Made by a program: the position numbers and the translations under genes
Notes under the pieces: model-generated
Databases searched by the model: none
Told to the model about the DNA's origin: nothing
The model's input: only the letters and a program-made list of their open reading frames with translations
Part shown: positions 5,586 through 19,561 of the stretch, piece after piece
Position numbering within the stretch: position 1 is the stretch's first letter
Layout of the letters: each line of letters starts with the position of its first letter
Origin: a phage
DNA length: 64,000 nt
Sequence record: PZ386969.1
Strand: one strand, 5' to 3'

Positions 5586-6697
5586 TCTACCTCCTGTTTG
5601 GTGTGCCATTGGTACTGGCTATCCTCTTTGTGACCTACCACCGCAAGACCCATGAGCCGAAAGAGACTCTGATTGCGACGGCGATTGTGGTGGTGCTGTC
5701 CTGTCTGATTCAGGTCGGGGCTTATGCTGCGTTCTCCCTCGGCAGTTCAGGGGACGTTGAGATCCTGAACGGGTACGTCACTGCAAAGGAGCGGAATAAG
5801 GTGAGCTGTGAGCATTCATATGAATGTATGTGCTATTACACAACATCTTGTACAGGTTCAGGAAATAACCGATCTTGTACACAAACGCGTCATTGCAGCA
5901 CATGCTATGAGCACTCTTATGACGTTGATTGGGATGTATTAACAACCGTCGGCGATCTGAGCATTGACCGTATTGATCGTCAGGGTACTACAGAGCCTCC
6001 GCGTTGGACACAAGTTAAAATCGGGGAACCTGTGGCACGTGAACATTCATATATGAATTATGTGCTGGGTAACAAAGACTCTCTGTTCTCTCGTTCAGAC
6101 CAGCAGTTTGCTGAGCGCTTCAAAGACAAGATTCCGAAGTATCCCGAAGTCTATGACTACTATCGCGTCACTCGTGTACTGAATGTGTCTGGTCTGGCGT
6201 TACCGACCACATACTGGAACGATTATCTGAATGATGCCCTGAAGAAGCTGGGCGCAGCCAAGCAGGTGAACATCGTCTGGGTTGTGACTTCCGGGCAGCC
6301 AGTTGAATACTTCCAGGGCTTGGTCTATGCTTGGGATGGTGGTAAAAAGAACGACGTTATCGTCGTGACCGACATCAACAAAGACCTGAAGATCAACTGG
6401 GGTAAGAGCACTTCGTTCGCTGATGGTATGCACAACCGTGAACTCCATTCTCGCAATGGCATGGCTCTCACAGGCCACGACATGGGTGTCGGTGTCATGG
6501 CTGATGTTGTCACTAACATCACCAAAGGCTACAACCGCGTTGAGATGAAGGAAATGGAGTACCTGAAGTGGCGGGAACTCAAGACCTGGGAAGTTGTGGT
6601 TGTTGTTCTGCTGGGCTGCTTACCATTCACCGCAATTTTCATATTACAGCGAATGGAGTACAATGGTGGCCGTCGTCGTTATCCGTTTAATTTTTAA
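5582..6697 (+). CDS. Membrane protein with cysteine-rich extracytoplasmic segment
   Basis: N-terminal and C-terminal hydrophobic helices; Cys cluster CEHSYECMCYYTTSCTGSGNNRSCTQTRHCSTCYEH. Confidence 0.55.
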   Translation: MIYLLFGVPLVLAILFVTYHRKTHEPKETLIATAIVVVLSCLIQVGAYAAFSLGSSGDVEILNGYVTAKERNKVSCEHSYECMCYYTTSCTGSGNNRSCTQTRHCSTCYEHSYDVDWDVLTTVGDLSIDRIDRQGTTEPPRWTQVKIGEPVAREHSYMNYVLGNKDSLFSRSDQQFAERFKDKIPKYPEVYDYYRVTRVLNVSGLALPTTYWNDYLNDALKKLGAAKQVNIVWVVTSGQPVEYFQGLVYAWDGGKKNDVIVVTDINKDLKINWGKSTSFADGMHNRELHSRNGMALTGHDMGVGVMADVVTNITKGYNRVEMKEMEYLKWRELKTWEVVVVVLLGCLPFTAIFILQRMEYNGGRRRYPFNF

Positions 6698-6715
6698 TCA
6701 AAAGAGGAAGTAAGA

Positions 6716-7285
6716 ATGTCTCAATCTAAGGGTATCGCAACAGGTTGGATAGTTGGTTTGGCTTTGCTGGGTATAGTGATTCTCGGCATCAGTACAGTCA
6801 TCAGCTACTTCAACGACTTCAACCGCACTGAGCAGCAGGTCAAGAAGTTCAACAAAGACTCCGAGAACTACCTGAGCAACTACACGCTCAAAGTTCAGGA
6901 GACGGCGCAGATTCCTGACATGTATAAAGACGGCCTGAAGGAAGTGATCAAAGGCACGTTCGAAGGGCGTTATGGTGCTGATGGTTCCAAGGCCGTCATG
7001 CAGTGGATCCAGGAGCAGAATATTCAGTTCGATTCCAGCCTGTACAAAGAGATCCAGGTGGTGATCAGTTCTGGGCGTGATGAATTCCGCATCAGCCAGA
7101 CCAAGAAGCTGGATATCTGCACAATATACGAAACCAAGCTGGCTCAGTTCCCTGGTTCGTTGATTGCTGGCATGTTCGGCTACCCGCGCATCGACCTTGA
7201 CAAGACCTGCCAGGTGGTGAGTGATACCCGTACCCAGGCCGCGTTCGACGCTGGTATTCAGAAACCGATTAACTTCAAAGGCTGA
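6716..7285 (+). CDS. Membrane-anchored hypothetical protein
   Basis: Single N-terminal TM helix then soluble domain. Confidence 0.5.
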   Translation: MSQSKGIATGWIVGLALLGIVILGISTVISYFNDFNRTEQQVKKFNKDSENYLSNYTLKVQETAQIPDMYKDGLKEVIKGTFEGRYGADGSKAVMQWIQEQNIQFDSSLYKEIQVVISSGRDEFRISQTKKLDICTIYETKLAQFPGSLIAGMFGYPRIDLDKTCQVVSDTRTQAAFDAGIQKPINFKG

Positions 7286-7289
7286 TGTC

Positions 7290-7703
7290 ATGAGCGTGAA
7301 ACTCACTGAATCCCTGACACTGGACCAACAGCAGGCTCTGTTGGATGAAGTGGTGATCTCTGCTATCAAGCAAGGGATTATCAAAGACGACATGTTGATT
7401 GACCGCCCCGAGATGATCCATCATCTGGTGGTGTGCCTGGGTGAGGCCAGCAACCCTCGCAAGAAGATCGTGCTGTTTACTGATGGTGTGATCCTTCCGA
7501 GCGGGAAATGTGCGTTCTTGGATGTGGTTGAACATCCGAACACGAAAGGCAAAGAGGTCAAGACTTCTGTTCCGGTGACCCCATACACCGAGGGTGTTGA
7601 CCAGCTGTCTTGGTTTGAGACAATCAACACCATTTATGTGATGGCACCGGACGGTAAACCAGTTCGGGATCTACGAGGCGGCAAAGTAGAATCTGAAGAC
7701 TAA
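7290..7703 (+). CDS. Hypothetical protein
   Basis: ATG at 7290 (MSVKLTE) in frame with track ORF 7221, avoids overlap with previous gene. Confidence 0.45.
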   Translation: MSVKLTESLTLDQQQALLDEVVISAIKQGIIKDDMLIDRPEMIHHLVVCLGEASNPRKKIVLFTDGVILPSGKCAFLDVVEHPNTKGKEVKTSVPVTPYTEGVDQLSWFETINTIYVMAPDGKPVRDLRGGKVESED

Positions 7704-7709
7704 TCGTTC

Positions 7710-7735
7710 TTCAATAAAAGGGGATAGGGTATTAT
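7710..7735 (+). promoter_or_regulatory. Promoter-like motif TTCAATAAA-N11-TATTAT overlapping terminator hairpin
   Basis: TTCAAT 7710-7715, -10-like 7730-7735. Confidence 0.45.
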
Positions 7736-7751
7736 TGCTCTATCCCTTTTT
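7720..7751 (+). terminator. Rho-independent terminator
   Basis: Stem GGGATAG/CTATCCC with A-tract upstream and T-tract downstream. Confidence 0.55.
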
Positions 7752-7814
7752 CGTGGACAGGAACATGACAGACAAGCCAAGAAAGATGAAGAACAAACGC
7801 CGGAGCAAACGCTG

Positions 7815-8282
7815 ATGACTACCAAACCAACTTATGAAGAACTGGCGCAGACCGTTCTGACCTTCGACAGCACCCTGAAGAATCTGTACAAGGTGCTGGG
7901 AAAGAACCCGACTTCAGAGTCAGGAGAAACAGTTAATCTTCTGTTACTGCTGAACCCTCTGTGGGATATTGATGCCACTGTTGCTGCCACTGTTGCTGCC
8001 CTGAAAGATCCTGGGGAACAGGAACCGGAGCCAACCCCTGTATCCACTGGGATTCAGAAATACCTGGAGAACTTTGACGAGTACTCCTTCACCGATCTGC
8101 TCCTGCGTGATATGATCAACACAGAACGCCGTCGCCAGGGGAAGAACTGTCCTGTGGTCCAGTCTGATGAAGAAATCGAGCAGAGTGTTCGAGAAGATCT
8201 GAACAGCACCTACTCGCCGATCGATCTGGCTGTAATGATTGTTCAGGCACTGTCCTATGCTGCCAAGGGGGAAACGAAATGA
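7815..8282 (+). CDS. Hypothetical protein
   Basis: ORF after terminator; acidic protein. Confidence 0.5.
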   Translation: MTTKPTYEELAQTVLTFDSTLKNLYKVLGKNPTSESGETVNLLLLLNPLWDIDATVAATVAALKDPGEQEPEPTPVSTGIQKYLENFDEYSFTDLLLRDMINTERRRQGKNCPVVQSDEEIEQSVREDLNSTYSPIDLAVMIVQALSYAAKGETK

Positions 8283-8479
8283 AGAAATCATCTGCGGCTG
8301 TTGCTGCTATGCTAGCGCTGTCAGAAATGGAAATCGTCGCCGCGCATCGTGGTGATGATATGTGGGGGCGTCGTTACACTCAGGGTGGCACACCCGGCGA
8401 ACCGGGACATGGTCGTCCATCTGTAACCCGCAAGAAGAAGGCGAAGACCTATGGAAAGAACAAGCGCAAACGTAAGTGA
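8279..8479 (+). CDS. Small basic protein
   Basis: ATGA overlap; Lys/Arg-rich C-terminus. Confidence 0.35.
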   Translation: MKKSSAAVAAMLALSEMEIVAAHRGDDMWGRRYTQGGTPGEPGHGRPSVTRKKKAKTYGKNKRKRK

Positions 8480-8620
8480 GGAGCGCCTGAAGGATCTTTC
8501 TGTAGGCAATCCAAAGTTGGCCAGATCATGGGTGATGTTTGATGACCGACGAGATAATCTTCCTTCGAGCAGAGGTCGCTCGATTAAGTAAAACCGAACC
8601 CAAAAAGTAGAGGATATGTT

Positions 8621-8968
8621 ATGAGTTCTATTGAACAGCTGATCACCCCACAGTATGTGTACTCCAACATTGTTGAGCACCTGCGCTCACAGTTGAACGT
8701 GGGAACCCTGAGCAGCACTGAACTGAAAGATCTCCAGATCACCAAAGTGGAAGTGGCAGCGTTCGGTAGCCGTTATCATTTCAACGTGGATTATACCCGC
8801 ATTGAAGAAGAGAAGGCATCTATCATCGCACTGGCTACTCCAGTCAACCCACGCAAAGAGCCTGTGTCGGTCACTCGCACCATCATCGGCTATCTGGAAG
8901 AGAAGTTGGAACCTGGTGCCCAGCGCCCAACATTCGACTTCCAGGCGCGATTTGCCACCGAAGATTGA
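8621..8968 (+). CDS. Hypothetical protein
   Basis: ORF followed by terminator. Confidence 0.45.
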   Translation: MSSIEQLITPQYVYSNIVEHLRSQLNVGTLSSTELKDLQITKVEVAAFGSRYHFNVDYTRIEEEKASIIALATPVNPRKEPVSVTRTIIGYLEEKLEPGAQRPTFDFQARFATED

Positions 8969-8976
8969 TCTGAACA

Positions 8977-8999
8977 AAGCCCTCAGCCGAGGGCTTTTT
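8977..8999 (+). terminator. Rho-independent terminator
   Basis: Stem GCCCTC/GAGGGC loop AGCC followed by TTTTT. Confidence 0.65.
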
Positions 9000-9024
9000 C
9001 AATTGAAGACACCCACCGTATTAT
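8998..9024 (+). promoter_or_regulatory. Promoter-like motif TTCAAT-N15-TATTAT upstream of rIIA
   Basis: TTCAAT 8998-9003, TATTAT 9019-9024, about 50 nt upstream of ATG 9075. Confidence 0.4.
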
Positions 9025-9074
9025 ACCCACTCAACCAATATGTTCCCCTTTGACATTGATAGGATTTCTATACT

Positions 9075-11831
9075 ATGAAAATGCGCAAGTCCGAGCACTT
9101 TATCCGCTCGTCGTCTTCCATTCAGGGGCAGGCGTTCAACGTGAAGATGAACGATAAGATGTTTGAGACTCTGTTCTCATCATTGTATCGTTACAAAGAG
9201 GCTGCAGCCCTGCGCGAAACCGTCTGTAACGCCATCGACTCCCATGGCATGCGTGATCGTATGCACCGTGTGATGGCATCCCACTACGCGCCTCTCACTC
9301 CGCCTCCTGCCCGCCATAGCAAATACCTTGCACCGAAGGGTAAGCAGGTTGTTGTGCATCTACCTGATGACTTTGAACCATGGCTGGAAATACGTGATTA
9401 CGGCATCGGTCTGCCACTTGAGAAGATCATTGGCGAGCCTATCCCAGCGCAGGAAGATGAGGTGCTGCTGGAAGGCAACATGGTGGTTAAGGAAGATGAG
9501 ATCCCTGACTCAGCTGAGGTCATCGGCGTGCCTGCGTTCTATAATGGTGGTCTAGTGTTCCGTCGCGAAGATGGTGAAATCATTCGTACGCCTGGGTTGT
9601 ATACCACTCTCTTCCACAGTACGAAGGAAGAAGATGATGATCAGATTGGGGCATTCGGTCTTGGCTCCAAATCACCATTTGCGGTATCGGATTCGTTCAC
9701 AGTGGAAAGCCGCATGGACGGTAAACTCCATCGCTTCCTGATGTACCTGAATGCCAAGCGCATCCCGACTGTTGATCTGATCACCAAAGATCTTGAAACC
9801 CGTGATCCTAAGCCGGAAGACACCGATGAGTTCAACGGCATGACGGTGAAGATCCCGGTGAAGAACGCTCGCTTCTCCGCATTCTCTGATGAACTGGTCC
9901 GTCTTGGTCGTGTTATGCGCCCTGAACAACGTCCAATTGTTGAGAACGCTTCATACCGCTTCAGCTGGGAAGATATCAGTTATGATTTCAAGGTCAACAA
10001 CACGTACATCCAGCCGAAAGGCCAGGGGAACACCCACTACGCTGTGATGGGCGGCGTGTCATACCCGATTGACCTGGACCAGCTGGACCCGGACACTGCT
10101 TCCATCATGAGCAAGTTCCCGTCGTCTTATACATTCTTTGAACTCGGTTCCCTGAACGTACCGCCGTCGCGTGAAGACCTGTCGTATGACGAATTCACCC
10201 GTGAGACGCTCTCTGAGGAGTTTAAGGGCACCGCCAATGCAATCTTGACAGAAAAGATGCGTGACCTGGAGCTGGCGTGTAAGCGCGGTCCTCTTGCCCT
10301 GTATATGGAGAAGGTAAAACTGAGTGAAATGTTCGGCAGTGGGTTCCGCAAGATGGTTGAAAAGGAATACCCGGCAGACAAGCGCTTTCATGATTCATAT
10401 TACCGTTACCCGCTGCCTGTTGAGATCGACCGTGACTATGACCACACCGCGCCGTTCAATGAATTGTCGTCGCCGTTCTCTATGGAGATCTTCTATGACT
10501 GGGGTGAGTCCAGTAATTTGACCATTTCAGAAATCCAGAAGTGGATTGATCGCGGCCAGCATGTTACTGTGGTGATCGAAGATAGTGTTCGTGCACGTAA
10601 TCTGAAGATCAAGCAGCTGAAAGATACAGGGACGATAGTCATCGTGGCCAAGCCGAACACATCCTATGTCACCAAGCGCAACCAATCTAAGGACAACCCT
10701 GCGTTCAAGAATTCTCAGGCTCTCTATGATTTCTTTGAAACTTGGATTGGTAAAGAAGAAACGACGGTTGATTATCTGTGCTTCGCTGACAAGTTCGTCG
10801 ATTGGCTGAGTGCGGTGCTGGAGCCTGCTGAAGTTAAGTTCATGAACGAACTGACGTATGTCACGCCCCCGGTCACCAAAGACCCTGGCCTGTTTCCGTT
10901 CACGCGCAGCAACTTCGACATATACCAGTATGAAGAACTGACGGGCGACCAGATCTCAGATATCATCAACAAGGGCGAGCGCATCGTCTATATTGAGGTG
11001 TCTGGCCATGCGTGTATCCATCAGGTGATGGACAGAACGTTGACGACTGCGGCGGCGCGGGGTATTCGTAAATCTCTGTATGAGCACGCAGTCAGTGTCG
11101 ACGATGAAGGCAAGCCAGTGTACATCAGCGATATGTTGAACGTTCACAACCGAATCTTCTTGGCTCGTCGTAAATCCGTGCCAATGATGAAGAAGTTCCC
11201 AGAGGTCTTCATACCGATCGATGAAATCCTGAAGATCATGTTGGAAAACGTGAAGCCTATGATGGAGCGCGATAGCGCCAGGCGCATACTGGAATCATAC
11301 CGCCGCATGCGCCTTGGGGCGGATCGATTAAAATACGGGAGTCATCTGGTTCATCAGGCGTTTGGTGATGTTGAAGACGATCGTTATGGCAAATTGGTCA
11401 GCCGTTACAACAAGTTAATGAAAGTTGTGGACGATATCTTGGATGAGCAGACTGTACGTCATTACCAAAGCCTGGCGAAAGCCCCGGTTTCAATCAATGA
11501 CAAGCGTCGATTTAGCCATTTCCAGGACACAATACATTCTCTTAACGTGAATTTGTACGCCAACGAGCGTGACGAAAAGATCTTCCGTTCAGAACATCAG
11601 ATGCTACAGATCTTTGAATACGCTTCGGATGTGTTGCTGTCTCATGGATTTACACCGTTTGATATATCGAGGACTCCGTCATTGAAAGCAAGGCGGGAAA
11701 ACCGATTGACCATCGAGCGTCATCGTGTTGTCCGGTTCTTGAAAGAGAATTACAAACCAAGCGCCCTGAACCCGATTGAAAAATCTTCGGATTACTTGGA
11801 CGTTATTTCAAATTCCATTATCAGGGCATAA
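9075..11831 (+). CDS. rIIA: rIIA protein
   Basis: N-terminal region matches T4 rIIA by eye (VFETLFSSLYRYKEAAALRETVCNAIDSHG; FGLGSKSPF motif of the ATPase-like domain). Confidence 0.85.
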   Translation: MKMRKSEHFIRSSSSIQGQAFNVKMNDKMFETLFSSLYRYKEAAALRETVCNAIDSHGMRDRMHRVMASHYAPLTPPPARHSKYLAPKGKQVVVHLPDDFEPWLEIRDYGIGLPLEKIIGEPIPAQEDEVLLEGNMVVKEDEIPDSAEVIGVPAFYNGGLVFRREDGEIIRTPGLYTTLFHSTKEEDDDQIGAFGLGSKSPFAVSDSFTVESRMDGKLHRFLMYLNAKRIPTVDLITKDLETRDPKPEDTDEFNGMTVKIPVKNARFSAFSDELVRLGRVMRPEQRPIVENASYRFSWEDISYDFKVNNTYIQPKGQGNTHYAVMGGVSYPIDLDQLDPDTASIMSKFPSSYTFFELGSLNVPPSREDLSYDEFTRETLSEEFKGTANAILTEKMRDLELACKRGPLALYMEKVKLSEMFGSGFRKMVEKEYPADKRFHDSYYRYPLPVEIDRDYDHTAPFNELSSPFSMEIFYDWGESSNLTISEIQKWIDRGQHVTVVIEDSVRARNLKIKQLKDTGTIVIVAKPNTSYVTKRNQSKDNPAFKNSQALYDFFETWIGKEETTVDYLCFADKFVDWLSAVLEPAEVKFMNELTYVTPPVTKDPGLFPFTRSNFDIYQYEELTGDQISDIINKGERIVYIEVSGHACIHQVMDRTLTTAAARGIRKSLYEHAVSVDDEGKPVYISDMLNVHNRIFLARRKSVPMMKKFPEVFIPIDEILKIMLENVKPMMERDSARRILESYRRMRLGADRLKYGSHLVHQAFGDVEDDRYGKLVSRYNKLMKVVDDILDEQTVRHYQSLAKAPVSINDKRRFSHFQDTIHSLNVNLYANERDEKIFRSEHQMLQIFEYASDVLLSHGFTPFDISRTPSLKARRENRLTIERHRVVRFLKENYKPSALNPIEKSSDYLDVISNSIIRA

Positions 11832-11862
11832 TAGTCCTGTTAACCAACGTGGGAACTACAAG

Positions 11863-13428
11863 ATGAACAAGATTGACGAAAAGATCCTGAAGTATTTGAA
11901 GGAAGGCAAAAGCCAGAGCGCAATTGCTACTCTGTTGGGCATACCCCGCTCGACTGTACAACGTGTTTCCGACACGGAAATTGGTGTTGACCCTACTTCG
12001 CTGAAATCCCTGACAACAGATCAGATCGCCAATATCCAAAGGGATTCGGCGGCAGGTAATGTCAGCAATGCATTCTTGGCCAAGGTGTACGGTGTGTCCG
12101 CCAAGACCATTGCTCGCGCTCTGTTGGTCCGGATTACCGAGGAGAAAAACAAGGTAACTGTGATCTCTCCTATCAAGCCGGAAGAACAAGAAGTATTCGA
12201 GGTCCAACCGGGCGGCACGGCCAAAGACAAAGATGGCACAGAATGGTATGTTGGGGCATATCTGCCGAACCACAACAAGTATCTGTGTCTCACTAACGAC
12301 GGCAATTTCAAAGGGGCTTTCTTTGAAAAGTCTGAATTGACTCCTGTGGAAGGTGATAGTTGCGCTTTCGATGTTGAAGCTATCGGCGAGATGGCAGAAA
12401 TTTCTGTGGCACTGTCAGAAGGTGCGGACAAAGTTCCGAGCAACGTTGAAATCAGCGTTGTGGTTGACGGGGAAACCTATCCTATCCGTGGATCCTTGGA
12501 TGCCCGTCGCCGTGTTGGTTACTTTGATGGCATCCTCGGTCGCACCCTGCGTCTGGCTCTGTCTTCTGTAGAATTCGCCGTCGCTGTCAAAGACGTTGAA
12601 GAAGTGGCTGATGATAAGAAGACCAAGCAGGACTTCGGCGCGAAAGACCTGGACGTGTTCCTGAACGAACACCAGATCCTGATTCTGCCTGACAGCGTTG
12701 TTATCGCGATTGACGGCAAGCCGGAAACGATCACCACTTCACACCCGGCCTATGACCGCATCGTACAGGCGATCAAAGACAAAGACGTGAAGCTGGCATA
12801 CTCGCTGATGCGTCCTCGTGAAGCCATCGCGAAGTACGCTGCTGGTCTGGTAGACGTGTCTGACAACCGTGTCCGCTGGTCCGGTCATGACATCACAGGC
12901 ACATCCATCGCCAAGCGTGTACTGGCGCTGATGCTGAAGGGTGACTTCCACAACCTGGACCGCATGGCGAAGTTTATGGACAAAATGTTCCAGAACCCGT
13001 CAGCTTCTCTGGTTCAGTCTGGGCGCATCTATGAGTTCATGGCGTACTCTGACATCGAAATTGACGACGATGGTGACATCATCCTCTACAAATCGGTGCG
13101 CGGCAACTACATGGACAAGCACAGCAACACGATCAGCAACGCCCCAGGCACTATCGTGCGGATGGCTCGCTCATTCGTGAACGACAACAACTCTGATCTG
13201 TGTTCATACGGTCTGCACGTTTGCTCCCTGGCCTATCTGAAACAGTGCTTCGGTTCTGTTGGCCAGCGCGTTGTTCGTTGTAAGCTGAACCCGCGCGACA
13301 TCGTGTCTATCACCAACGATTACGGCTCCAGCAAGATCCGCTGCTGTGAATATCTGGTGTTGGATGATTACACGGCTGAGTACAATCGCCAGCACAAGTC
13401 TATTGACGTCACTGGTCTGTACAAGTAA
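11863..13428 (+). CDS. rIIB: rIIB protein
   Basis: C-terminal region matches T4 rIIB by eye (SYGLHVCSLAYLKQCFGS..VVRCKLNPRDIVSI); start set at ATG 11863 (MNKIDEK) after rIIA stop. Confidence 0.85.
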   Translation: MNKIDEKILKYLKEGKSQSAIATLLGIPRSTVQRVSDTEIGVDPTSLKSLTTDQIANIQRDSAAGNVSNAFLAKVYGVSAKTIARALLVRITEEKNKVTVISPIKPEEQEVFEVQPGGTAKDKDGTEWYVGAYLPNHNKYLCLTNDGNFKGAFFEKSELTPVEGDSCAFDVEAIGEMAEISVALSEGADKVPSNVEISVVVDGETYPIRGSLDARRRVGYFDGILGRTLRLALSSVEFAVAVKDVEEVADDKKTKQDFGAKDLDVFLNEHQILILPDSVVIAIDGKPETITTSHPAYDRIVQAIKDKDVKLAYSLMRPREAIAKYAAGLVDVSDNRVRWSGHDITGTSIAKRVLALMLKGDFHNLDRMAKFMDKMFQNPSASLVQSGRIYEFMAYSDIEIDDDGDIILYKSVRGNYMDKHSNTISNAPGTIVRMARSFVNDNNSDLCSYGLHVCSLAYLKQCFGSVGQRVVRCKLNPRDIVSITNDYGSSKIRCCEYLVLDDYTAEYNRQHKSIDVTGLYK

Positions 13429-13444
13429 CCAAACCCCATCCACC

Positions 13445-13470
13445 AAGGAGGCCGGAGCCTCCTTTCTTTT
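13445..13470 (+). terminator. Rho-independent terminator
   Basis: Stem AAGGAGGC/GCCTCCTT loop CGGA followed by TCTTTTG. Confidence 0.6.
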
Positions 13471-13479
13471 GAGGTCGAT

Positions 13480-13785
13480 ATGTTAACCAACGACGTCTAC
13501 TTCAAATATGCAAGGCAGACATACGGCTCGCACCGCGTGACAGACAAGTTCCTGATTGACTCCTTCCAGTTTGAAGGGGAGATGAGGGAATACTCACACA
13601 AACAATTCCCACCCCGTGAAGTGCATGGTGACCAGTTCGTGAAATTGTTCTGTCGCTGTGGTGGATGTGATTTCACGGATGATGGTTACGCAATGCACGT
13701 GTACTGCTGTAATTGCTGTGGTAAATACGTAACAGTCTATAGGAGAACCGAACATGGCCAAGAAACCAGAAGTCAAGAAAGTTGA
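13480..13785 (+). CDS. Cys-rich hypothetical protein
   Basis: ORF with CxxC-type clusters (CRCGGC, CCNCCG); 3' end overlaps next gene by 32 nt. Confidence 0.35.
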   Translation: MLTNDVYFKYARQTYGSHRVTDKFLIDSFQFEGEMREYSHKQFPPREVHGDQFVKLFCRCGGCDFTDDGYAMHVYCCNCCGKYVTVYRRTEHGQETRSQES

Positions 13786-14179
13786 AATTAAAACCGAAGC
13801 CCCAGTCGATGACATCCAGGCGAAGGAGGAAGGTGTGTTGCCTACCTACCTACAACGCGCCATCGATAACATCCCTCCAGGGGGAGACGGAGGCGTCGTC
13901 TACGCTGGCGGGTACGGTTGGGTGTGCGAATACCAAGACGGCACGAAGGAACTCCTCCAGGAGCTTCCAGGGCTGGCTGCGACCCTCAAGCGTTATGGTC
14001 GCGACAAGTTCGGCAAGCCGTTTGAAACCGGGGCTGTGATTGAAACCAACATCACAGTCGAGACTCTGAACCTGCTGGGTGAAGATGATCTCAAGTTGTT
14101 GGCTGCGCCGCTGGGTATCACAGAAGAAGATCGCATTCAGCTGATTGCGAAGCTGATCGAAAAATTGCAGATTAAATAA
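13754..14179 (+). CDS. Hypothetical protein
   Basis: ATG preceded by TAGGAG. Confidence 0.45.
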   Translation: MAKKPEVKKVEIKTEAPVDDIQAKEEGVLPTYLQRAIDNIPPGGDGGVVYAGGYGWVCEYQDGTKELLQELPGLAATLKRYGRDKFGKPFETGAVIETNITVETLNLLGEDDLKLLAAPLGITEEDRIQLIAKLIEKLQIK

Positions 14180-14209
14180 GCCGGTGTACAACAGCTGAAC
14201 TTATTCAAT

Positions 14210-14602
14210 ATGCCTATCGTTGACGAAAGCAACTTGATGGATTATGCACTGAGGCATTATATTGTAGATTCTGTCTCGTGGGATGAACTGCTGGTAGACA
14301 TTCAGCGGATTTCGCTAATTAATCAATCATTGAAGAGATTTGTCCCTGGTAAGAGTCCTCGGTTGATTCTCAATCAATTGATTACTGTCTTCAATACGTT
14401 CGAAACAGAGGCTGCTTGTCGCATGCTCGTTTTGAAGGTGGATAAGCCCCAGTTGCCACGCCTCAAGGCTGCTTTGTTGACATTAGGCGTATGGCGCGAT
14501 GATTTATGTTCCGGTTCATACGAACCAGATAATGAGCTGATGATGGCTCTGAACAACGATTTGGATGAGTGGAGGAAACCATGCCAACGATCACTGTATT
14601 AG
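14210..14602 (+). CDS. Hypothetical protein
   Basis: ORF; 3' end overlaps next gene. Confidence 0.4.
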   Translation: MPIVDESNLMDYALRHYIVDSVSWDELLVDIQRISLINQSLKRFVPGKSPRLILNQLITVFNTFETEAACRMLVLKVDKPQLPRLKAALLTLGVWRDDLCSGSYEPDNELMMALNNDLDEWRKPCQRSLY

Positions 14603-15390
14603 TAGCACCGGAAGTTGTTCGCAACAAACCGGAAACTGAGCGTCTTCACACTGTAACAGGTACTGCTCGTGGTTGGGAAAAGACCAGTCTTAACCAAGAC
14701 CCAGACGAGATCCTGACTGAGTGTAAAGGTCTGGATGCACTGCTGACCAAGAGCAATTTGCAGGCCGATGGCGTCACCAAAGTGGATCCAACCAAGCCCG
14801 TTGGCTTCCAGCTGTCTTATGAAATCCACGACCCAAGCGCTGTGCTGACCACTGGCCTGACCATCACCCCTGAAACTGCTAATGGTGAAGTCGGTCAGGT
14901 TGTTGAACTGAAGGCGGTCGTCGCTCCGGAGAACGCGACCTACCAGGGTGTCAACTGGTACTCTGGCGATCTGACCAAAGCTGTGCACATCGGTGGTGGT
15001 AAATTCAAGCTGCTGGCACCGGGTTCAGTGACTGTTTACGGTGTAACCATCGAAGGTGACCACACCGACTCTACCGTCATCACAGTGGCTGGCGCTCTGT
15101 CTCTGTCTACCGATCTGGCCGCTTCTCAGGATGTAACAACAGGTGAATCCGCAACCTTCACCATCGCTGCTACAGGCGGCACTACCCCATACACACATAC
15201 TTGGTACTTCTCTGATGTCCCTGGTGGTGAAGGTGAGGTGATCGATGCTGGCACTAACCCCACTGCTGCAACTGCGAGCCTGGTTATCACTACAGTTGCT
15301 GCCGAAAACGAGGGTGAGTACTGGTGTGTTGTTGAAGACGCTGACGGCCACTCTGTGACCTCTACTCGTTGCGAAATGGCTGCGGTCTAA
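14581..15390 (+). CDS. Ig-like domain protein (Big_2-like plus I-set-like)
   Basis: ATG 14581 preceded by GGAGGA; Big_2-like segment and Ig I-set-like segment (EGEYWCVV). Confidence 0.55.
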   Translation: MPTITVLVAPEVVRNKPETERLHTVTGTARGWEKTSLNQDPDEILTECKGLDALLTKSNLQADGVTKVDPTKPVGFQLSYEIHDPSAVLTTGLTITPETANGEVGQVVELKAVVAPENATYQGVNWYSGDLTKAVHIGGGKFKLLAPGSVTVYGVTIEGDHTDSTVITVAGALSLSTDLAASQDVTTGESATFTIAATGGTTPYTHTWYFSDVPGGEGEVIDAGTNPTAATASLVITTVAAENEGEYWCVVEDADGHSVTSTRCEMAAV

Positions 15391-15392
15391 TC

Positions 15393-15626
15393 ATGAAAGG
15401 CTTCCAGGACTTCCTTGAAGACTCAGCAGCCCCTGGAACCACGACCGCCGATGTGGGGAAACCCGAAGGCGGTATGGTGAAAGAGCCTGTCAAGAAGCCC
15501 AAGGATCTTGAGGAAGAACAAGAGCAGACCTCCTTCCAAAAGATCTTTGGAAACATCTTCAAAGACCTCGACCTGAAGAATGCGCGAAAGTGGAACTTCA
15601 GGACAGGCAAATATGAAGAGGAATGA
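15393..15626 (+). CDS. Hypothetical protein
   Basis: ATG 15393 in frame with track ORF 15369. Confidence 0.35.
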   Translation: MKGFQDFLEDSAAPGTTTADVGKPEGGMVKEPVKKPKDLEEEQEQTSFQKIFGNIFKDLDLKNARKWNFRTGKYEEE

Positions 15627-15657
15627 GCCATGAACGCGATGATCATGGGTTAACAAA

Positions 15658-15677
15658 AGAGGCTCCGGCCTCTTTTT
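15658..15677 (+). terminator. Rho-independent terminator
   Basis: Stem AGAGGC/GCCTCT loop TCCG followed by TTTT. Confidence 0.6.
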
Positions 15678-15695
15678 CATTTCCAGCATTTGGTG

Positions 15696-15701
15696 TATAA
15701 T
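15696..15701 (+). promoter_or_regulatory. Sigma70-type -10 element
   Basis: Exact TATAAT directly after the terminator; possible -35 TTTTCA 16 nt upstream. Confidence 0.35.
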
Positions 15702-15744
15702 GGAACCGTTCCCCATGAGCGGAACCTATCTGAGGATACACCAA

Positions 15745-16245
15745 ATGAAATCCATGGTCAAACGTAAAGTCGAAATCTCCCTGACTGCCCATATTGAAAT
15801 GGTCCAACAACTTATCCTGGATGCGTATGAAATCCAGAAAGATCGCCAATCGAGGGGAGGTGTGACGGACCCCACCTGTCCTGGAAACATACTGTACTAT
15901 CGCATGCTGCGCCAGACTGGGCACACCGCCGCGCTGAAGAAGATTCTGTCCTATGATTTCCAGACAGAGAACAACCTCAACATCATGGGTGTCTTCCATA
16001 GCGTTAGTGAACGCGATTCTTTCTTCCGCTCCCGAGCAGGCGCGGATGTATCATTGCCCGATGTAGACAAGAAACAGCACACGACAACCATCTCCCATTA
16101 CATGGGCACGGGCATCGATAAAGCAAATATCATCGTGTTCTCTGATACGTTGCATGACCCCAAGCGCCTTGCATCTGCGCATGAAATGCTGCGGGAAGGT
16201 CGCAGCGCCCTCACTAATTTGACTTTAGTAGTGTTTCTGGGCTAG
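15745..16245 (+). CDS. Hypothetical protein
   Basis: Start taken at ATG 15745 (GAGGA upstream) because track start 15700 overlaps the TATAAT; start uncertain. Confidence 0.45.
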   Translation: MKSMVKRKVEISLTAHIEMVQQLILDAYEIQKDRQSRGGVTDPTCPGNILYYRMLRQTGHTAALKKILSYDFQTENNLNIMGVFHSVSERDSFFRSRAGADVSLPDVDKKQHTTTISHYMGTGIDKANIIVFSDTLHDPKRLASAHEMLREGRSALTNLTLVVFLG

Positions 16246-16294
16246 ATAGTTACAGGGGAGTTTCCTCCCCTATTTCCCTAACAGGAGGTGCGCA

Positions 16295-16492
16295 ATGTAT
16301 AAGTTCAGAATTAACAGAGAACGTAATTCGTTCAAATTCGGTGTAATCGCTGGGGTGTGTTTGTTCCTGGCGCTCGAAAGCGTTATCGGCCTGCTTACAA
16401 CACCACAAATGCAGGTGACTCGTTACCTTCTTGCCATTATATTTTCTGTTGTCGGTTTACTCTGCTCCTATTTGGGGTGTGTGAAGAAATAA
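16295..16492 (+). CDS. Small membrane protein
   Basis: Strong RBS AGGAGG; two hydrophobic helices. Confidence 0.5.
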   Translation: MYKFRINRERNSFKFGVIAGVCLFLALESVIGLLTTPQMQVTRYLLAIIFSVVGLLCSYLGCVKK

Positions 16493-16534
16493 ACTGGCTA
16501 CACACAGCAATACTTTGATTTGAGAAACTACATC

Positions 16535-17023
16535 ATGATGCTGTTAATGAGCGTTCCACAGAACAAGATGACCCCTGCAACAGAGGGTAAGAATCACTTC
16601 AACATCTATAGCCGGAGCCAGACGGAACTCGGGCGCTTCCTCTCGCATTTTACCCATCATCCAATGACTACCCATGAACATGGTGTGTTTAACTCCATGG
16701 AGGGGTACTGGTATTGGCTGAAGTATAGGGATGACAACCTGCGCCTGCTCGACGGTTATGAGGCCAAGCAATATGGACAGGGATTGGCGGCTTCCCGCGT
16801 GATTGTCCTGGACCCGTCTACCGAAGAATTCAAGCGCGATATCCTATTTGCAACTAGTATGAAACTCCAGACAATGCCTGAACGTCTGAAGATCAGATTG
16901 GCGTACAGTCGCCTACCCCTGATCCATGCATATGTTCAGAACGGGAAATACAGTTTTCAAAACTCTATGGACTATATCATTGCCCACATTAATCGTCTCC
17001 GCATACAAGGAACTTTGAAATGA
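16535..17023 (+). CDS. NADAR (YbiA/DUF1768)-like protein
   Basis: Pattern FNIYSRS...THEHGVFNSMEGYWYWLK parallels remembered E. coli YbiA (NFYSTS...TSEHYFQAQKF); divergent. Confidence 0.45.
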   Translation: MMLLMSVPQNKMTPATEGKNHFNIYSRSQTELGRFLSHFTHHPMTTHEHGVFNSMEGYWYWLKYRDDNLRLLDGYEAKQYGQGLAASRVIVLDPSTEEFKRDILFATSMKLQTMPERLKIRLAYSRLPLIHAYVQNGKYSFQNSMDYIIAHINRLRIQGTLK

Positions 17024-17601
17024 AATTTCTACACACTATCGTCGACACTTCTTATGACTGCACTGCTCATACCCCAGACCGTTCGCCTGTGTTTGTTCTG
17101 AACAAACTAGGTGAAGAGATCTGTGAACTGTCTGATGTGTTTCATGGCATAGTATCTTCCGAGCCGTTGAATGGCGAAGTTGCTGATGTCATTATCTCTG
17201 CTATTGACCTTCTGTACGTCATGGATTATGACGACGTCCAAATGCGCGGCTCTCTGAACAAGGCCGAAATGATCGACTCTGTCATCAACCACATGGCGAC
17301 AGTGAACGATATTTCTTCTAATCTGTTGGAAGAAGACTGGTTCCGTCTGATTGATCGTGATCCTCAAAAGCATCTGAATCTTATCCATCATTATCATGGC
17401 CGGATTATCCGGTTGTGCAACCAGCCTTATCGCAGTCAAGACAGATTGGATCATCTTGTCAATGACCTAATCAAGCATGTTGCGCGCATGGGGTGTGGGG
17501 AAGGGGCGATCCGTGGATCCTCTTTGACGGCCACTCGCATTAAAGTGGAGCACGCTATTGAACACAAGGTTGAAAAGTGGCGTAGCAAATTTGGTCTATA
17601 A
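17020..17601 (+). CDS. MazG-like nucleotide pyrophosphohydrolase
   Basis: KLGEEICELSD ... EVADVIISAIDLLY resembles the MazG/HisE EExxE...D motifs. Confidence 0.5.
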   Translation: MKFLHTIVDTSYDCTAHTPDRSPVFVLNKLGEEICELSDVFHGIVSSEPLNGEVADVIISAIDLLYVMDYDDVQMRGSLNKAEMIDSVINHMATVNDISSNLLEEDWFRLIDRDPQKHLNLIHHYHGRIIRLCNQPYRSQDRLDHLVNDLIKHVARMGCGEGAIRGSSLTATRIKVEHAIEHKVEKWRSKFGL

Positions 17602-17650
17602 GCCGACCCCATACATAATCTTGTGTGTTTACCATTGACGGGATAGGCCG

Positions 17651-19561
17651 ATGTCCAACAAAATTGATATTGAACGCAAGTACAAGAAGCTCACTCACGT
17701 TGAGCATATCCTACTCCGCCCAGAGCGTCATCTGGGCAGTATTCGTTCGTCTGTGGGGACGGTGTGGGTGTATGACCCAACTAAGGACAAAGTCATCTTC
17801 CGTGACAACTTTGAGTACTCCCCCGCGCTGATCAAACAGTTTGATGAAATCATCACCAACTGTGTTGACCACAGCAAGACCCCTGAGGGCAAATCCCTGA
17901 CGGAAATCACCGTCACAGTTTCCCCTATGAACGGTCAAATCATCGTTGCTGACAACGGGGGTATCCCTGTGGTCAAGCATGGCGTCACCAACGAGTGGCT
18001 TCCTGAAATGTTGTTCGGCTCTCTATATGCGGGATCGAACTTCAACGACGAAGACGAAGAGTACAACAACCAGAAGTCCGGTGGTCAGAATGGCGAAGGG
18101 GCGTCCCTCGTCAACGTGTTCTCCAAATGGTTCCGCGTCACGACTAATGACGGCAAGAAGTCTTATACTCAGACGTTTGAAGACAACATGAGCAAGAAAT
18201 CTAACCCAGTCATCAGCAACGTGAACAGTCCTGGCACATCCATCGCCTGGATCCCTGACTATGCTCGTCTGGGCGTCAAAGGACTTGACCAGAACAACCT
18301 GCTGATGATCTATCGCCGCGCGTTTGAAGTGGCTGCGTGTAACCCGCGCCTGAAGATTGTTCTCAACGGGAAGCAAATCCGGATTGACCGCTTTGGCCAC
18401 TTCGTTGATTACTTCCATGCTGGCTCGGCTGTTGACGAAACCGGGGATTGGTCTGTTGCTGTAGCCCCTTCATCCGGTACGTTCATGCACGCATCATACG
18501 TGAACTCTATTGCCACCCACATCGGTGGTCCTCACGTTGATTATGTTGCTGACCAGATCGTGGCAGCGATTCGTCCCCAGCTGGTGAAGAAGTTCAAGAC
18601 CGAACTGAAGCCAGCAATGATCAAGAACCACATGTCCTTGTTCATCGCTGCCGACATCAACAACCCGCGCTTTGACAGCCAGACCAAGGAGCGCATGACC
18701 ACTCCTGTCAGCCAGTTCGGTACGTCGTACAAGCCCAGTGATAAACTGATCCGCAAGGCGCTTGAGTTCGTTACGGCTGGTCTGAGCAAAGAACTGGCTT
18801 CCCTGCGCAATGAGCAGGATGATGCTGAGTTTGAAAAGGCCAAGAAGGACATCAGCAAGCGGGATTATCGTGAGATTGAGAAGTATTACCCGGCGACCGC
18901 CCGTGGTGACCGCAGCGGATGCTCCCTGTTGCTGACAGAGGGTGATAGTGCCTCCAATCCTATCCTGAACGCCCGCGACACCAAGAAGATCGGGTTGTTC
19001 CCGCTTCGTGGTAAGTTCATCAACTGCCTGAACGCCCCGCGCTCAAAGGTGATGAACAATGAAGAGTTCAAGAACCTGTGTACGATCCATGGCGGCGCAG
19101 TGCCAGGCCAGCCCCTTGATATCACCCGTTACCCACAGACTGTTGTGGCTACCGATGCGGACGATGACGGCATCCACATCCGTGGGTTGTTGATCACCCT
19201 GTATTGCACCTACTGGCCGGAGTATGTCCGTCAGGGCAGGCTGAAGCTCCTGCGCACCCCTTACATGCGTGTGTGGTGTGGTAAGGTGATGCATGAGTTC
19301 ATGAACAACGCCGAGTATGAGGAGTTCCTGAAGACGCCTGATGCCAAGAAGATCACGAAGAAGAAATATCTGAAAGGTCTTGGTGGTAACAGCACTGAAG
19401 ACTTCAAACGTATTCTAAACAACCTAGATGCGTATACTACGACGGTCACGCTGGACGATGGCTACCAACAGTCACTGAAGAATGGCTTCGGTGATGAGGC
19501 TGCCGATTACCGTAAAACCTGGTTTAGCGATGTTTGCCTGTTTGAAACTGAGGATGAATAA
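17651..19561 (+). CDS. DNA topoisomerase II large subunit (T4 gp39-like)
   Basis: GHKL ATPase-type N-terminus (NCVDHS, DNGGIPV) and TOPRIM-like region (LLLTEGDSA). Confidence 0.9.
   Translation: MSNKIDIERKYKKLTHVEHILLRPERHLGSIRSSVGTVWVYDPTKDKVIFRDNFEYSPALIKQFDEIITNCVDHSKTPEGKSLTEITVTVSPMNGQIIVADNGGIPVVKHGVTNEWLPEMLFGSLYAGSNFNDEDEEYNNQKSGGQNGEGASLVNVFSKWFRVTTNDGKKSYTQTFEDNMSKKSNPVISNVNSPGTSIAWIPDYARLGVKGLDQNNLLMIYRRAFEVAACNPRLKIVLNGKQIRIDRFGHFVDYFHAGSAVDETGDWSVAVAPSSGTFMHASYVNSIATHIGGPHVDYVADQIVAAIRPQLVKKFKTELKPAMIKNHMSLFIAADINNPRFDSQTKERMTTPVSQFGTSYKPSDKLIRKALEFVTAGLSKELASLRNEQDDAEFEKAKKDISKRDYREIEKYYPATARGDRSGCSLLLTEGDSASNPILNARDTKKIGLFPLRGKFINCLNAPRSKVMNNEEFKNLCTIHGGAVPGQPLDITRYPQTVVATDADDDGIHIRGLLITLYCTYWPEYVRQGRLKLLRTPYMRVWCGKVMHEFMNNAEYEEFLKTPDAKKITKKKYLKGLGGNSTEDFKRILNNLDAYTTTVTLDDGYQQSLKNGFGDEAADYRKTWFSDVCLFETEDE

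Follow-up and report, generated by a model that had tools for sequence, protein, structure and literature searches.

We analyzed the rII region (positions 9,075 to 13,428) of a 64,000-nucleotide (nt) stretch of phage DNA, sequence record PZ386969.1, which is referred to here as the window. Its rIIA and rIIB genes encode proteins that are considerably longer than those of phage T4. The locus is very likely a typical rIIA-rIIB operon from a phage of the Ackermannviridae (Agtrevirus/Ag3-like). It would have the long form common to the whole Vi01/Ag3/LIMEstone-type clade, and the extra length would represent lineage-specific accretion on conserved scaffolds rather than wrongly called starts or novel protein types. 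The identity and architecture of the two proteins as described below form the firmest part of this account, and we hold them with high confidence.

Identity of the locus

9075..11831, + strand: rIIA; ATG start, 918 amino acids (aa); residues 1-918 match positions 1-917 of the phrog_3661 profile ("RIIA"; E = 0)
11863..13428, + strand: rIIB; ATG start, 521 aa; residues 1-521 match positions 1-530 of the phrog_3803 profile ("RIIB"; E = 5e-280)

The last nucleotide of the rIIA stop codon is at 11831; after a 31-nt spacer, rIIB begins with the ATG at 11863. The two are thus separate, codirectional open reading frames (ORFs), with rIIB immediately 3' of rIIA on the same strand as in T4. A megablast search with positions 9075-13428 returned 92 phage records, 45 of which covered at least 80% of the query. 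The nearest by nucleotide identity were Escherichia phages YX22 (98.0%) and LHE287 (97.7%) and Shigella phage Ag3 (93.4%); next came Dickeya, Salmonella, Klebsiella, and Serratia phages, about 150-160 kb in size. Taxonomically, Ag3 belongs to Ackermannviridae, Aglimvirinae, Agtrevirus. The first two genes of Ag3 carry the annotations RIIA and RIIB lysis inhibitor with extents matching those in the window, as is also the case for LHE287. The end-to-end PHROG matches and the same annotation in Ag3 and LHE287 therefore indicate that the long forms are an established family and not a peculiarity of the window.

Across the Ackermannviridae-type clade, the homologues of rIIA were 908-973 aa long and those of rIIB 504-555 aa. 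Regarding the N-terminal part of rIIB, residues 1-278 were found at a coverage of at least 80% in 281 phage records (tblastn), including Vi01, Det7, Ag3, LIMEstone-type phages, Menlow, and phiMAM1, and all of the matches listed were from Enterobacterales phages of about 120-166 kb. The rII proteins of Ag3, Vi01, and Dickeya phage LIMEstone1 (PHROG 3661 and 3803) have the same lengths, domain order, and genomic context as those in the window, at 41-98% identity. No architectural difference separates them from the window proteins, and the divergence is local, being greatest in the second helix-turn-helix (HTH) unit of rIIB (HTH2). We conclude that the rIIA and rIIB of the window are members of the Ackermannviridae rII group.

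With T4 (NC_000866; rIIA and rIIB, NP_049616 and NP_049889), the locus shares the gene order, the GHKL region of rIIA, the core of rIIB, and one rIIB HTH. It differs from T4 in two insertions in the N-terminal region of rIIA (residues 63-87 and 120-173) and others in the C-terminal half, and in a first HTH unit (HTH1), a middle insertion, and a C-terminal tail of 14 aa in rIIB.

Lengths and start codons

A first-pass annotation made from the sequence of the window had contrasted rIIA and rIIB with much shorter T4 proteins. The ORFs and NC_000866 agree with these lengths: rIIA is 918 aa versus 725 aa in T4 (193 aa longer), and rIIB is 521 aa versus 312 aa (209 aa longer).

The same annotation had raised the possibility that the true start codons lie further downstream, in which case the extra length would be an artefact and the proteins would be T4 sized. 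This explanation is effectively refuted, even though both ATGs are preceded by weak Shine-Dalgarno-like sequences (tagga, 11 nt 5' of the rIIA ATG; tggga, about 8 nt 5' of the rIIB ATG) and the first 26 residues of rIIA were predicted with low confidence by AlphaFold2 (AF2). For rIIA, the BLASTP alignment with the T4 protein begins by pairing residue 17 with T4 residue 16, so rIIA has no N-terminal extension, and its additional length is internal and C-terminal. For rIIB, Met1 is the sole Met within the first 150 codons, leaving zero alternative ATGs there; HTH1 scores above the Pfam gathering thresholds; and conservation of the N-terminal protein sequence extends to homologues with as little as about 41% identity. 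A rIIB starting at HTH2 would still retain the middle insertion of 150-170 aa. Finally, the related genomes of Ag3 and LHE287 carry identical start annotations. A mechanically called ORF of 550 aa with a TTG start at 11776 was rejected as an upstream start of rIIB: it overlaps the end of rIIA, and the added residues are conserved in no homologue.

Insertions in rIIA

The motifs and insertions of the N-terminal part of rIIA were mapped as follows.

9216..9239, + strand: N-box, E48-x3-N52-x2-D55; E48, N52, and D55 invariant in 58 homologues
9261..9335, + strand: insertion 1, residues 63-87; predicted loop (predicted local distance difference test [pLDDT] by block, 59-70); gap in the alignment with T4
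9396..9410, + strand: G1 box, D108-x-G110-x-G112; D108 and G110 invariant, G112 conserved at 90% or more
9432..9593, + strand: insertion 2, residues 120-173, between G1 and G2 in the ATP-lid region; gap in the alignment with T4
9648..9671, + strand: G2 box, G192-AF-G195-L-G197-S-K199; G192, G195, L196, G197, and K199 invariant

Motif conservation was taken from an alignment of 58 sequences, and insertions were defined by a column occupancy of <20% in 25 homologues shorter than 800 aa. The segments absent from these shorter homologues were residues 63-87, 120-173, and 237-245, together with several more in the C-terminal half. Homology to T4 rIIA was supported by BLASTP (residues 17-417, about 400 aa; 25% identity; E = 6e-29) and by a match to phrog_612, the T4 type (E = 1e-78). 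Between the long and T4-type proteins, the C-terminal halves are remotely homologous, at the profile level only (hhalign, 93.5%; E = 2e-7), with insertions distinguishing the two. With insertions mapped in both the lid region and the C-terminal half, the extra length of rIIA is insertional too. The claim that rIIA exceeds the T4 protein thus stands, with the added residues located internally (25 aa and 54 aa in the ATPase domain and others in the C-terminal half) rather than in an N-terminal extension.

Insertion 2 is acidic (net charge, -9) and has four predicted beta strands at residues 129-163 (pLDDT by block, 83-89). Overall, rIIA proteins fell into three length classes, i.e., 908-973 aa (the clade), 868-913 aa (some Vibrio phages), and about 640-810 aa (T4-like and others); insertion 2 is also present in the 868- to 913-aa Vibrio phage forms.

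The AF2 model of rIIA (pLDDT, 85.9) matched TRAP1/Hsp90/HtpG (E = 2e-11) and the ATPase regions of GyrB/ParE/MutL (E = 1e-6 to 1e-5) in Foldseek searches. These proteins resemble rIIA in the predicted fold and in the N-box, G1, and G2 motifs at a sequence identity of 9-14%, and weak sacsin/HtpG matches in NCBIfam fell at the G2 region. Pfam gave no match for the window rIIA, and T4 rIIA matched HATPase_c_3 weakly (E = 1.6e-4); the GHKL assignment therefore rests on the motifs, the T4 alignment, and Foldseek. Compared with GHKL ATPases that have a transducer region, rIIA has the 54-aa insertion between G1 and G2 and a C-terminal half of its own, and its ATPase activity is predicted. On these grounds, rIIA appears to consist of an N-terminal GHKL ATPase domain with a transducer-like region, intact ATP-binding motifs, and a variable C-terminal half.

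Tandem HTH units in rIIB

11863..11997, + strand: HTH1, residues 1-45; Pfam HTH_38, HTH_23, and CENP-B_N; helices at residues 3-13, 18-25, and 29-40 (AF2)
11998..12138, + strand: HTH2 and the following strand, residues 46-92; BLASTP match to T4 and HTH2 hidden Markov model (HMM); helices at residues 52-63, 69-76, and 80-86 (AF2)

The first-pass annotation had pointed to two HTH-like segments, corresponding to residues 16-35 (11908-11967) and 67-87 (12061-12123), and both proved to belong to recognizable units. In HTH1, residues 6-36 exceeded the Pfam gathering scores of HTH_38 (29.4 versus 27 bits; E = 6e-7), HTH_23 (28.9 versus 24.6), and CENP-B_N (24.4 versus 21.2). HTH2 alone was below the threshold in Pfam (HTH_36, 21.3 versus 25 bits; E = 2e-4) and was identified by BLASTP against T4, by profile comparison, and by its three-helix prediction. 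The AF2 model contained two three-helix units at residues 3-40 and 52-86 (pLDDT by block, 75-91), and the HTH1 and HTH2 profiles matched each other (hhalign, 95.6%; E = 1e-8). The AF2 helices and the profile match together predict two tandem trihelical HTH units in a paired-like arrangement. Close homologues are already named "helix-turn-helix domain-containing protein" in databases.

The two units differ in their relationship to T4. Residues 46-100 of rIIB pair with residues 3-57 of T4 rIIB (BLASTP; E = 1e-4), and HTH2 is therefore ancestral and not an addition. In agreement with this, T4 rIIB matched the HMM of the clade HTH2 (E = 2.8e-6), and its residues 7-50 matched Pfam HTH_7, HTH_28, and HTH_29 (E = 6e-5 to 1.5e-4). 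No counterpart of HTH1 was found in the BLASTP alignment with T4 rIIB. Judged from these alignments, HTH1 (about 43-45 aa) is the sole genuinely added module of a DNA-binding type relative to T4 rIIB. It is possibly a tandem duplicate of HTH2, and the profile match fits equally well with membership of both units in one HTH class. The earlier proposal that the extra N-terminal sequence represents added DNA-binding modules accordingly needs to be narrowed: it applies to HTH1, but not to HTH2, which T4 has, nor to most of the added length, which is a non-HTH insertion.

Middle insertion, core, and tail of rIIB

12163..12672, + strand: clade-specific middle insertion, about residues 101-270; about 150-170 aa, from the T4 alignment, HMM searches, and AF2
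12673..13425, + strand: conserved core, about residues 271-521; contains CSxGLHVC, C447-C454 (13201-13224)

At the site of the middle insertion, T4 rIIB holds about 28 residues (BLASTP). In the AF2 model of rIIB (pLDDT, 83.8; predicted template modeling score, 0.76; alignment of 32 sequences), this part consisted of two beta modules, at residues 89-154 (strands at 119-154) and 195-242, with a helix between them at 171-186; the core started from about residue 261. Residues 93-270 are acidic (net charge, -15). Among 150 diverse rIIB representatives, matches to an HMM of residues 88-278 were confined to the Ackermannviridae-type clade; HMMs of the middle insertion found nothing outside the clade in this set, except for one marginal match of a sub-HMM (midA) to P0174 (E = 0.016). 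Pfam gave no domain match in the middle insertion. The whole rIIB model yielded weak Foldseek matches in the PDB to tandem Tudor/Agenet/KOW/SH3-like barrels (E = 0.004 to 0.1; probabilities up to 0.97; low TM-scores). The aligned query residues of these matches were not reported, and the barrels are a lead only for residues 101-270. We also considered the middle region as an internal repeat of the core on the basis of an "ISVVVDGETY" similarity, and rejected this idea because local alignments were no better than those of shuffled sequences (z = -1.6 to 1.4).

The core is homologous to T4 rIIB (residues 279-507 versus T4 residues 88-311; 36% identity; E = 5e-47 by BLASTP) and carries the CSxGLHVC...RxC signature of the family. 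In 78 very diverse rIIB homologues, C447, G450, L451, and H452 were invariant, and C454 and C495 were conserved at 90% or more. Judging from its conservation pattern, this Cys/His set may be a site of metal binding or catalysis; to our knowledge, no description of such a site in the rIIB core exists. In the same homologues, K410, D418, N426, D486, K491, and R493 were also invariant, with R436 conserved at 90% or more. The residues of the CSxGLHVC ... RCC pattern lie at window positions 13201-13224 and 13345-13347 (C495). Beyond the core, rIIB has the 14-aa C-terminal tail that T4 rIIB does not have. PF26926 was present as a precomputed label on all rIIB homologues. Searches by sequence for solved structures returned none for rIIB and a chance match (E = 0.65) for rIIA, and no transmembrane segments were found (maximum 19-residue Kyte-Doolittle mean, 1.42).

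Variation of rIIB across phages

We searched 1.84 billion representative proteins with the rIIB core (residues 279-521), and 7342 of them matched at E <= 1e-3. The architecture survey was based on the best 150 of these 7342 representatives. Their lengths ranged from 209 to 659 aa (median, 374 aa), with the 312 aa of T4 rIIB between the 10th and 25th percentiles. The core was N-terminal in 69 of the 150, whereas 21 had at least 260 residues ahead of it. The core-first proteins have no N-terminal region, and the core can therefore exist without an N-terminal HTH. With our own HTH HMMs, at least one HTH was detected in 47 of 152 sequences (the 150 representatives, the window protein, and T4 rIIB), and an HTH in the N-terminal part is widespread in the rIIB family. 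In the 78 N-extended homologues, Pfam found HTH_23 in 20, HTH_28 in 15, and a phosphopantetheine (PP)-binding domain in 3. A double HTH occurred mainly in the Ackermannviridae-type clade; P0179 also has two by Pfam. Named phage rIIB proteins in BFVD were 265-644 aa long, and the RB43 rIIA-rIIB fusion was 1049 aa. Sharing of the extensions by most rII homologues, which the first-pass annotation had named as a finding that would undercut its view of them, was therefore observed in part: they are common to the whole Ackermannviridae-type clade, and the length of rIIB elsewhere is very variable.

Several other arrangements were observed. In P0044 and P0047, among other examples, a phosphopantetheine-attachment domain (acyl carrier protein [ACP] type; PF00550) stands ahead of the rIIB core, either replacing the HTH or beside it. 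Four core-first homologues (P0204, P0276, P0280, and P0300) have an HTH at the C terminus; the HTH and core modules have therefore been shuffled in both orders. In two phages, rIIB is annotated as two ORFs (Salmonella phage 38, A0A0N7C9T3/A0A0N7C9T1, 290 + 147 aa; Erwinia phage phiEa104, E5AFT4/E5AFT3, 102 + 265 aa), which reflects either a genuine separation of the HTH/N-terminal part from the core or a frameshift or an error in sequencing.

Putative function of the rII pair

Divergent rII modules (those of T4, MM02, EdH4, SUSP1, and N4) counter lambda RexAB and are required solely on hosts that carry it (Adler et al. 2025; PMC11879866). By homology, the rIIA-rIIB pair of the window is probably a counter-defence module against Rex-type abortive infection, as in T4, N4, and SUSP1. 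Within such a module, rIIA would perform an ATP-driven clamping or remodelling step in the manner of Hsp90, MutL, or GyrB, and rIIB would combine the activity of its core with nucleic acid contact through the tandem paired-like HTH. In RB43-type phages, the rIIA GHKL region and the rIIB core occur in one fused protein (phrog_609; Q56C47, 1049 aa), in contrast to the separate ORFs of the window. The presence of both modules in this fusion supports the idea that rIIA and rIIB work together; together with the conservation of the motifs, it suggests ATP hydrolysis by rIIA and joint action with rIIB. We give the rIIB HTH units about an even chance of binding DNA, and it is rather doubtful that DNA binding is required for the counter-defence activity.

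Several points weigh against this proposal. Our literature search found no experiment on any Ackermannviridae rII protein and no demonstration of DNA binding by any rIIB, and the Rex-type role would be extrapolated from phages whose rII proteins are <40% identical. T4 rIIB is membrane associated, and in the classical T4 deletion r1589 the beginning of the rIIB cistron (the "B1 segment") is lost with B function kept. If this deletion spans the T4 HTH, Rex evasion would not depend on that HTH, which would then be accessory; the codon endpoints of r1589 and of the B1 segment were not given in the literature searched. As for the fold of the middle insertion, the rIIB model had no Foldseek match in the PDB at E <= 1e-3, either for the insertion or for the core. 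Finally, the HTH units have changed in comparison with Ag3. In HTH1, the 9 differing codons comprised 2 synonymous and 7 nonsynonymous changes, and in HTH2 (11998-12138) 29 of 46 codons differed (15 synonymous and 14 nonsynonymous), a pattern that would fit relaxed or diversifying selection on the HTH surfaces.

The rest of the locus provides a reference for these counts. The rIIB middle insertion had 24 synonymous and 10 nonsynonymous changes relative to Ag3, and the core had 32 and 4 (36 of 252 codons), while those in rIIA were mostly synonymous throughout. The HTH2 differences point to local rapid evolution or to a recombination patch. Within the clade, conservation was 0.78 for helix 3 of HTH1, 0.82 for helix 3 of HTH2, 0.79 for the core, and lowest (0.46) for the middle insertion. 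A conserved helix 3 combined with a changing exterior is the pattern that may be expected of functional HTH units with variable outer surfaces.

This divergence bears on an alternative in which the HTH units and the middle insertion do not bind nucleic acids and instead form protein interaction or decoy surfaces shaped by an arms race with host sensors of rIIB. T6 RIIB alone triggers a CARD-gasdermin system and is itself toxic in Escherichia coli, and mutants escaping this defence inactivate rIIB (Wein et al. 2023; PMC10312443); rIIB would therefore be under selection to avoid recognition. The extent of change in HTH2 relative to the core, the poor conservation and strong acidity of the middle insertion, and the highly diverse N-terminal architectures of rIIB, including the ACP-type PP-binding domains, are in line with such surfaces. 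However, the third helices, which normally contact DNA, are the most conserved HTH positions, and an HTH has been kept from T4 to Ackermannviridae despite a core identity of about 36%. We consider this alternative improbable.

A second alternative is that rIIB acts primarily as a sequence-specific transcription factor, as has been proposed (PMC7824862). The added HTH1 would then give it a bipartite, paired-domain-like domain for binding DNA, altering or extending operator specificity in Ackermannviridae. The rIIB N terminus resembles IS630/Tc1-mariner and IS21 transposases, CENP-B, and Cbp1 in having tandem trihelical HTHs joined by a short linker, and its DNA binding is putative. Pfam HTH_23, HTH_28, CENP-B_N, and HTH_38 are families typical of the bipartite DNA-binding domains of transposases and CENP-B, and weak NCBIfam matches to the IS21 transposase N terminus (residues 10-92) and to Cbp1 agree with a bipartite reading. 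The third helices are the best-conserved parts of the units, HTH2 is basic (net charge, +4), and P0179 provides a second lineage of double-HTH rIIB. In contrast to those transposases, rIIB lacks a transposase catalytic domain, and its HTH2 is below the Pfam threshold. Against a regulator stand the core-first homologues, the lack of a reported operator or of reported DNA binding in the literature searched, and, again, the membrane association of T4 rIIB and the deletion tolerated at the start of its cistron. Moreover, rII knockdowns had no phenotype in the absence of Rex (PMC11879866), which is unexpected of a general regulator. The transcription factor reading is, in our estimation, unlikely to a similar degree.

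A more specific possibility is that Ackermannviridae rIIB is a bipartite, sequence-specific DNA binder whose beta-barrel insertion acts as a reader or adaptor and which tethers the Hsp90/MutL-like rIIA to a nucleoprotein complex. This tether would be more speculative still, with a probability that we place below that of either alternative above. If it were true, rII would defeat Rex by remodelling or masking a DNA-protein trigger and not via the membrane, and the long form would offer a convenient system, with separable domains, in which to address what rII does, a question now 70 years old.

Flanking elements and neighboring genes

8976..8999, + strand: terminator-like hairpin, AAAGCCCTC-agcc-GAGGGCTTT followed by Ts; 3' of the upstream ORF stop at 8968; read directly from the sequence
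13445..13474, + strand: terminator-like hairpin with a T-rich tail, 17 nt beyond the rIIB stop; from the terminator scan

With hairpins on both flanks, rIIA and rIIB look like one unit, of which the hairpin at 8976..8999 marks the upstream boundary. This hairpin was not called in the consensus terminator scan because its T-run is too short. No convincing sigma-70-type promoter was found 5' of rIIA, with 6 consensus matches in positions 8500-14000 compared with 5.4 expected by chance.

In the related genomes, genes for an HU-family histone-like protein and topoisomerase II subunits lie 2-4 kb downstream of rIIB (LHE287, 13537-18354; Ag3, 6634-10351). T4 rIIA also adjoins topoisomerase genes, namely, 60 and 39, and the rII-topoisomerase II neighborhood seems to be conserved between two phage families.

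Significance

The long rIIA and rIIB are real but already known, being standard, and annotated as such, across hundreds of Vi01/Ag3-type phages with sequenced genomes. Iyer et al. 2021 (PMC7824862) described both the rIIB HTH (as a "specific TF," i.e., transcription factor) and, for rIIA, a GHKL domain accompanied by a variable C-terminal domain, and the present findings carry little weight as a discovery. The modest gain is a domain map, which distinguishes the ancestral from the added HTH, locates the insertion site in rIIB relative to T4, and places rIIA inserts in the ATP-lid region. Such a map could guide truncation work on rII, a module that both counters RexAB and triggers CARD-gasdermin defence.

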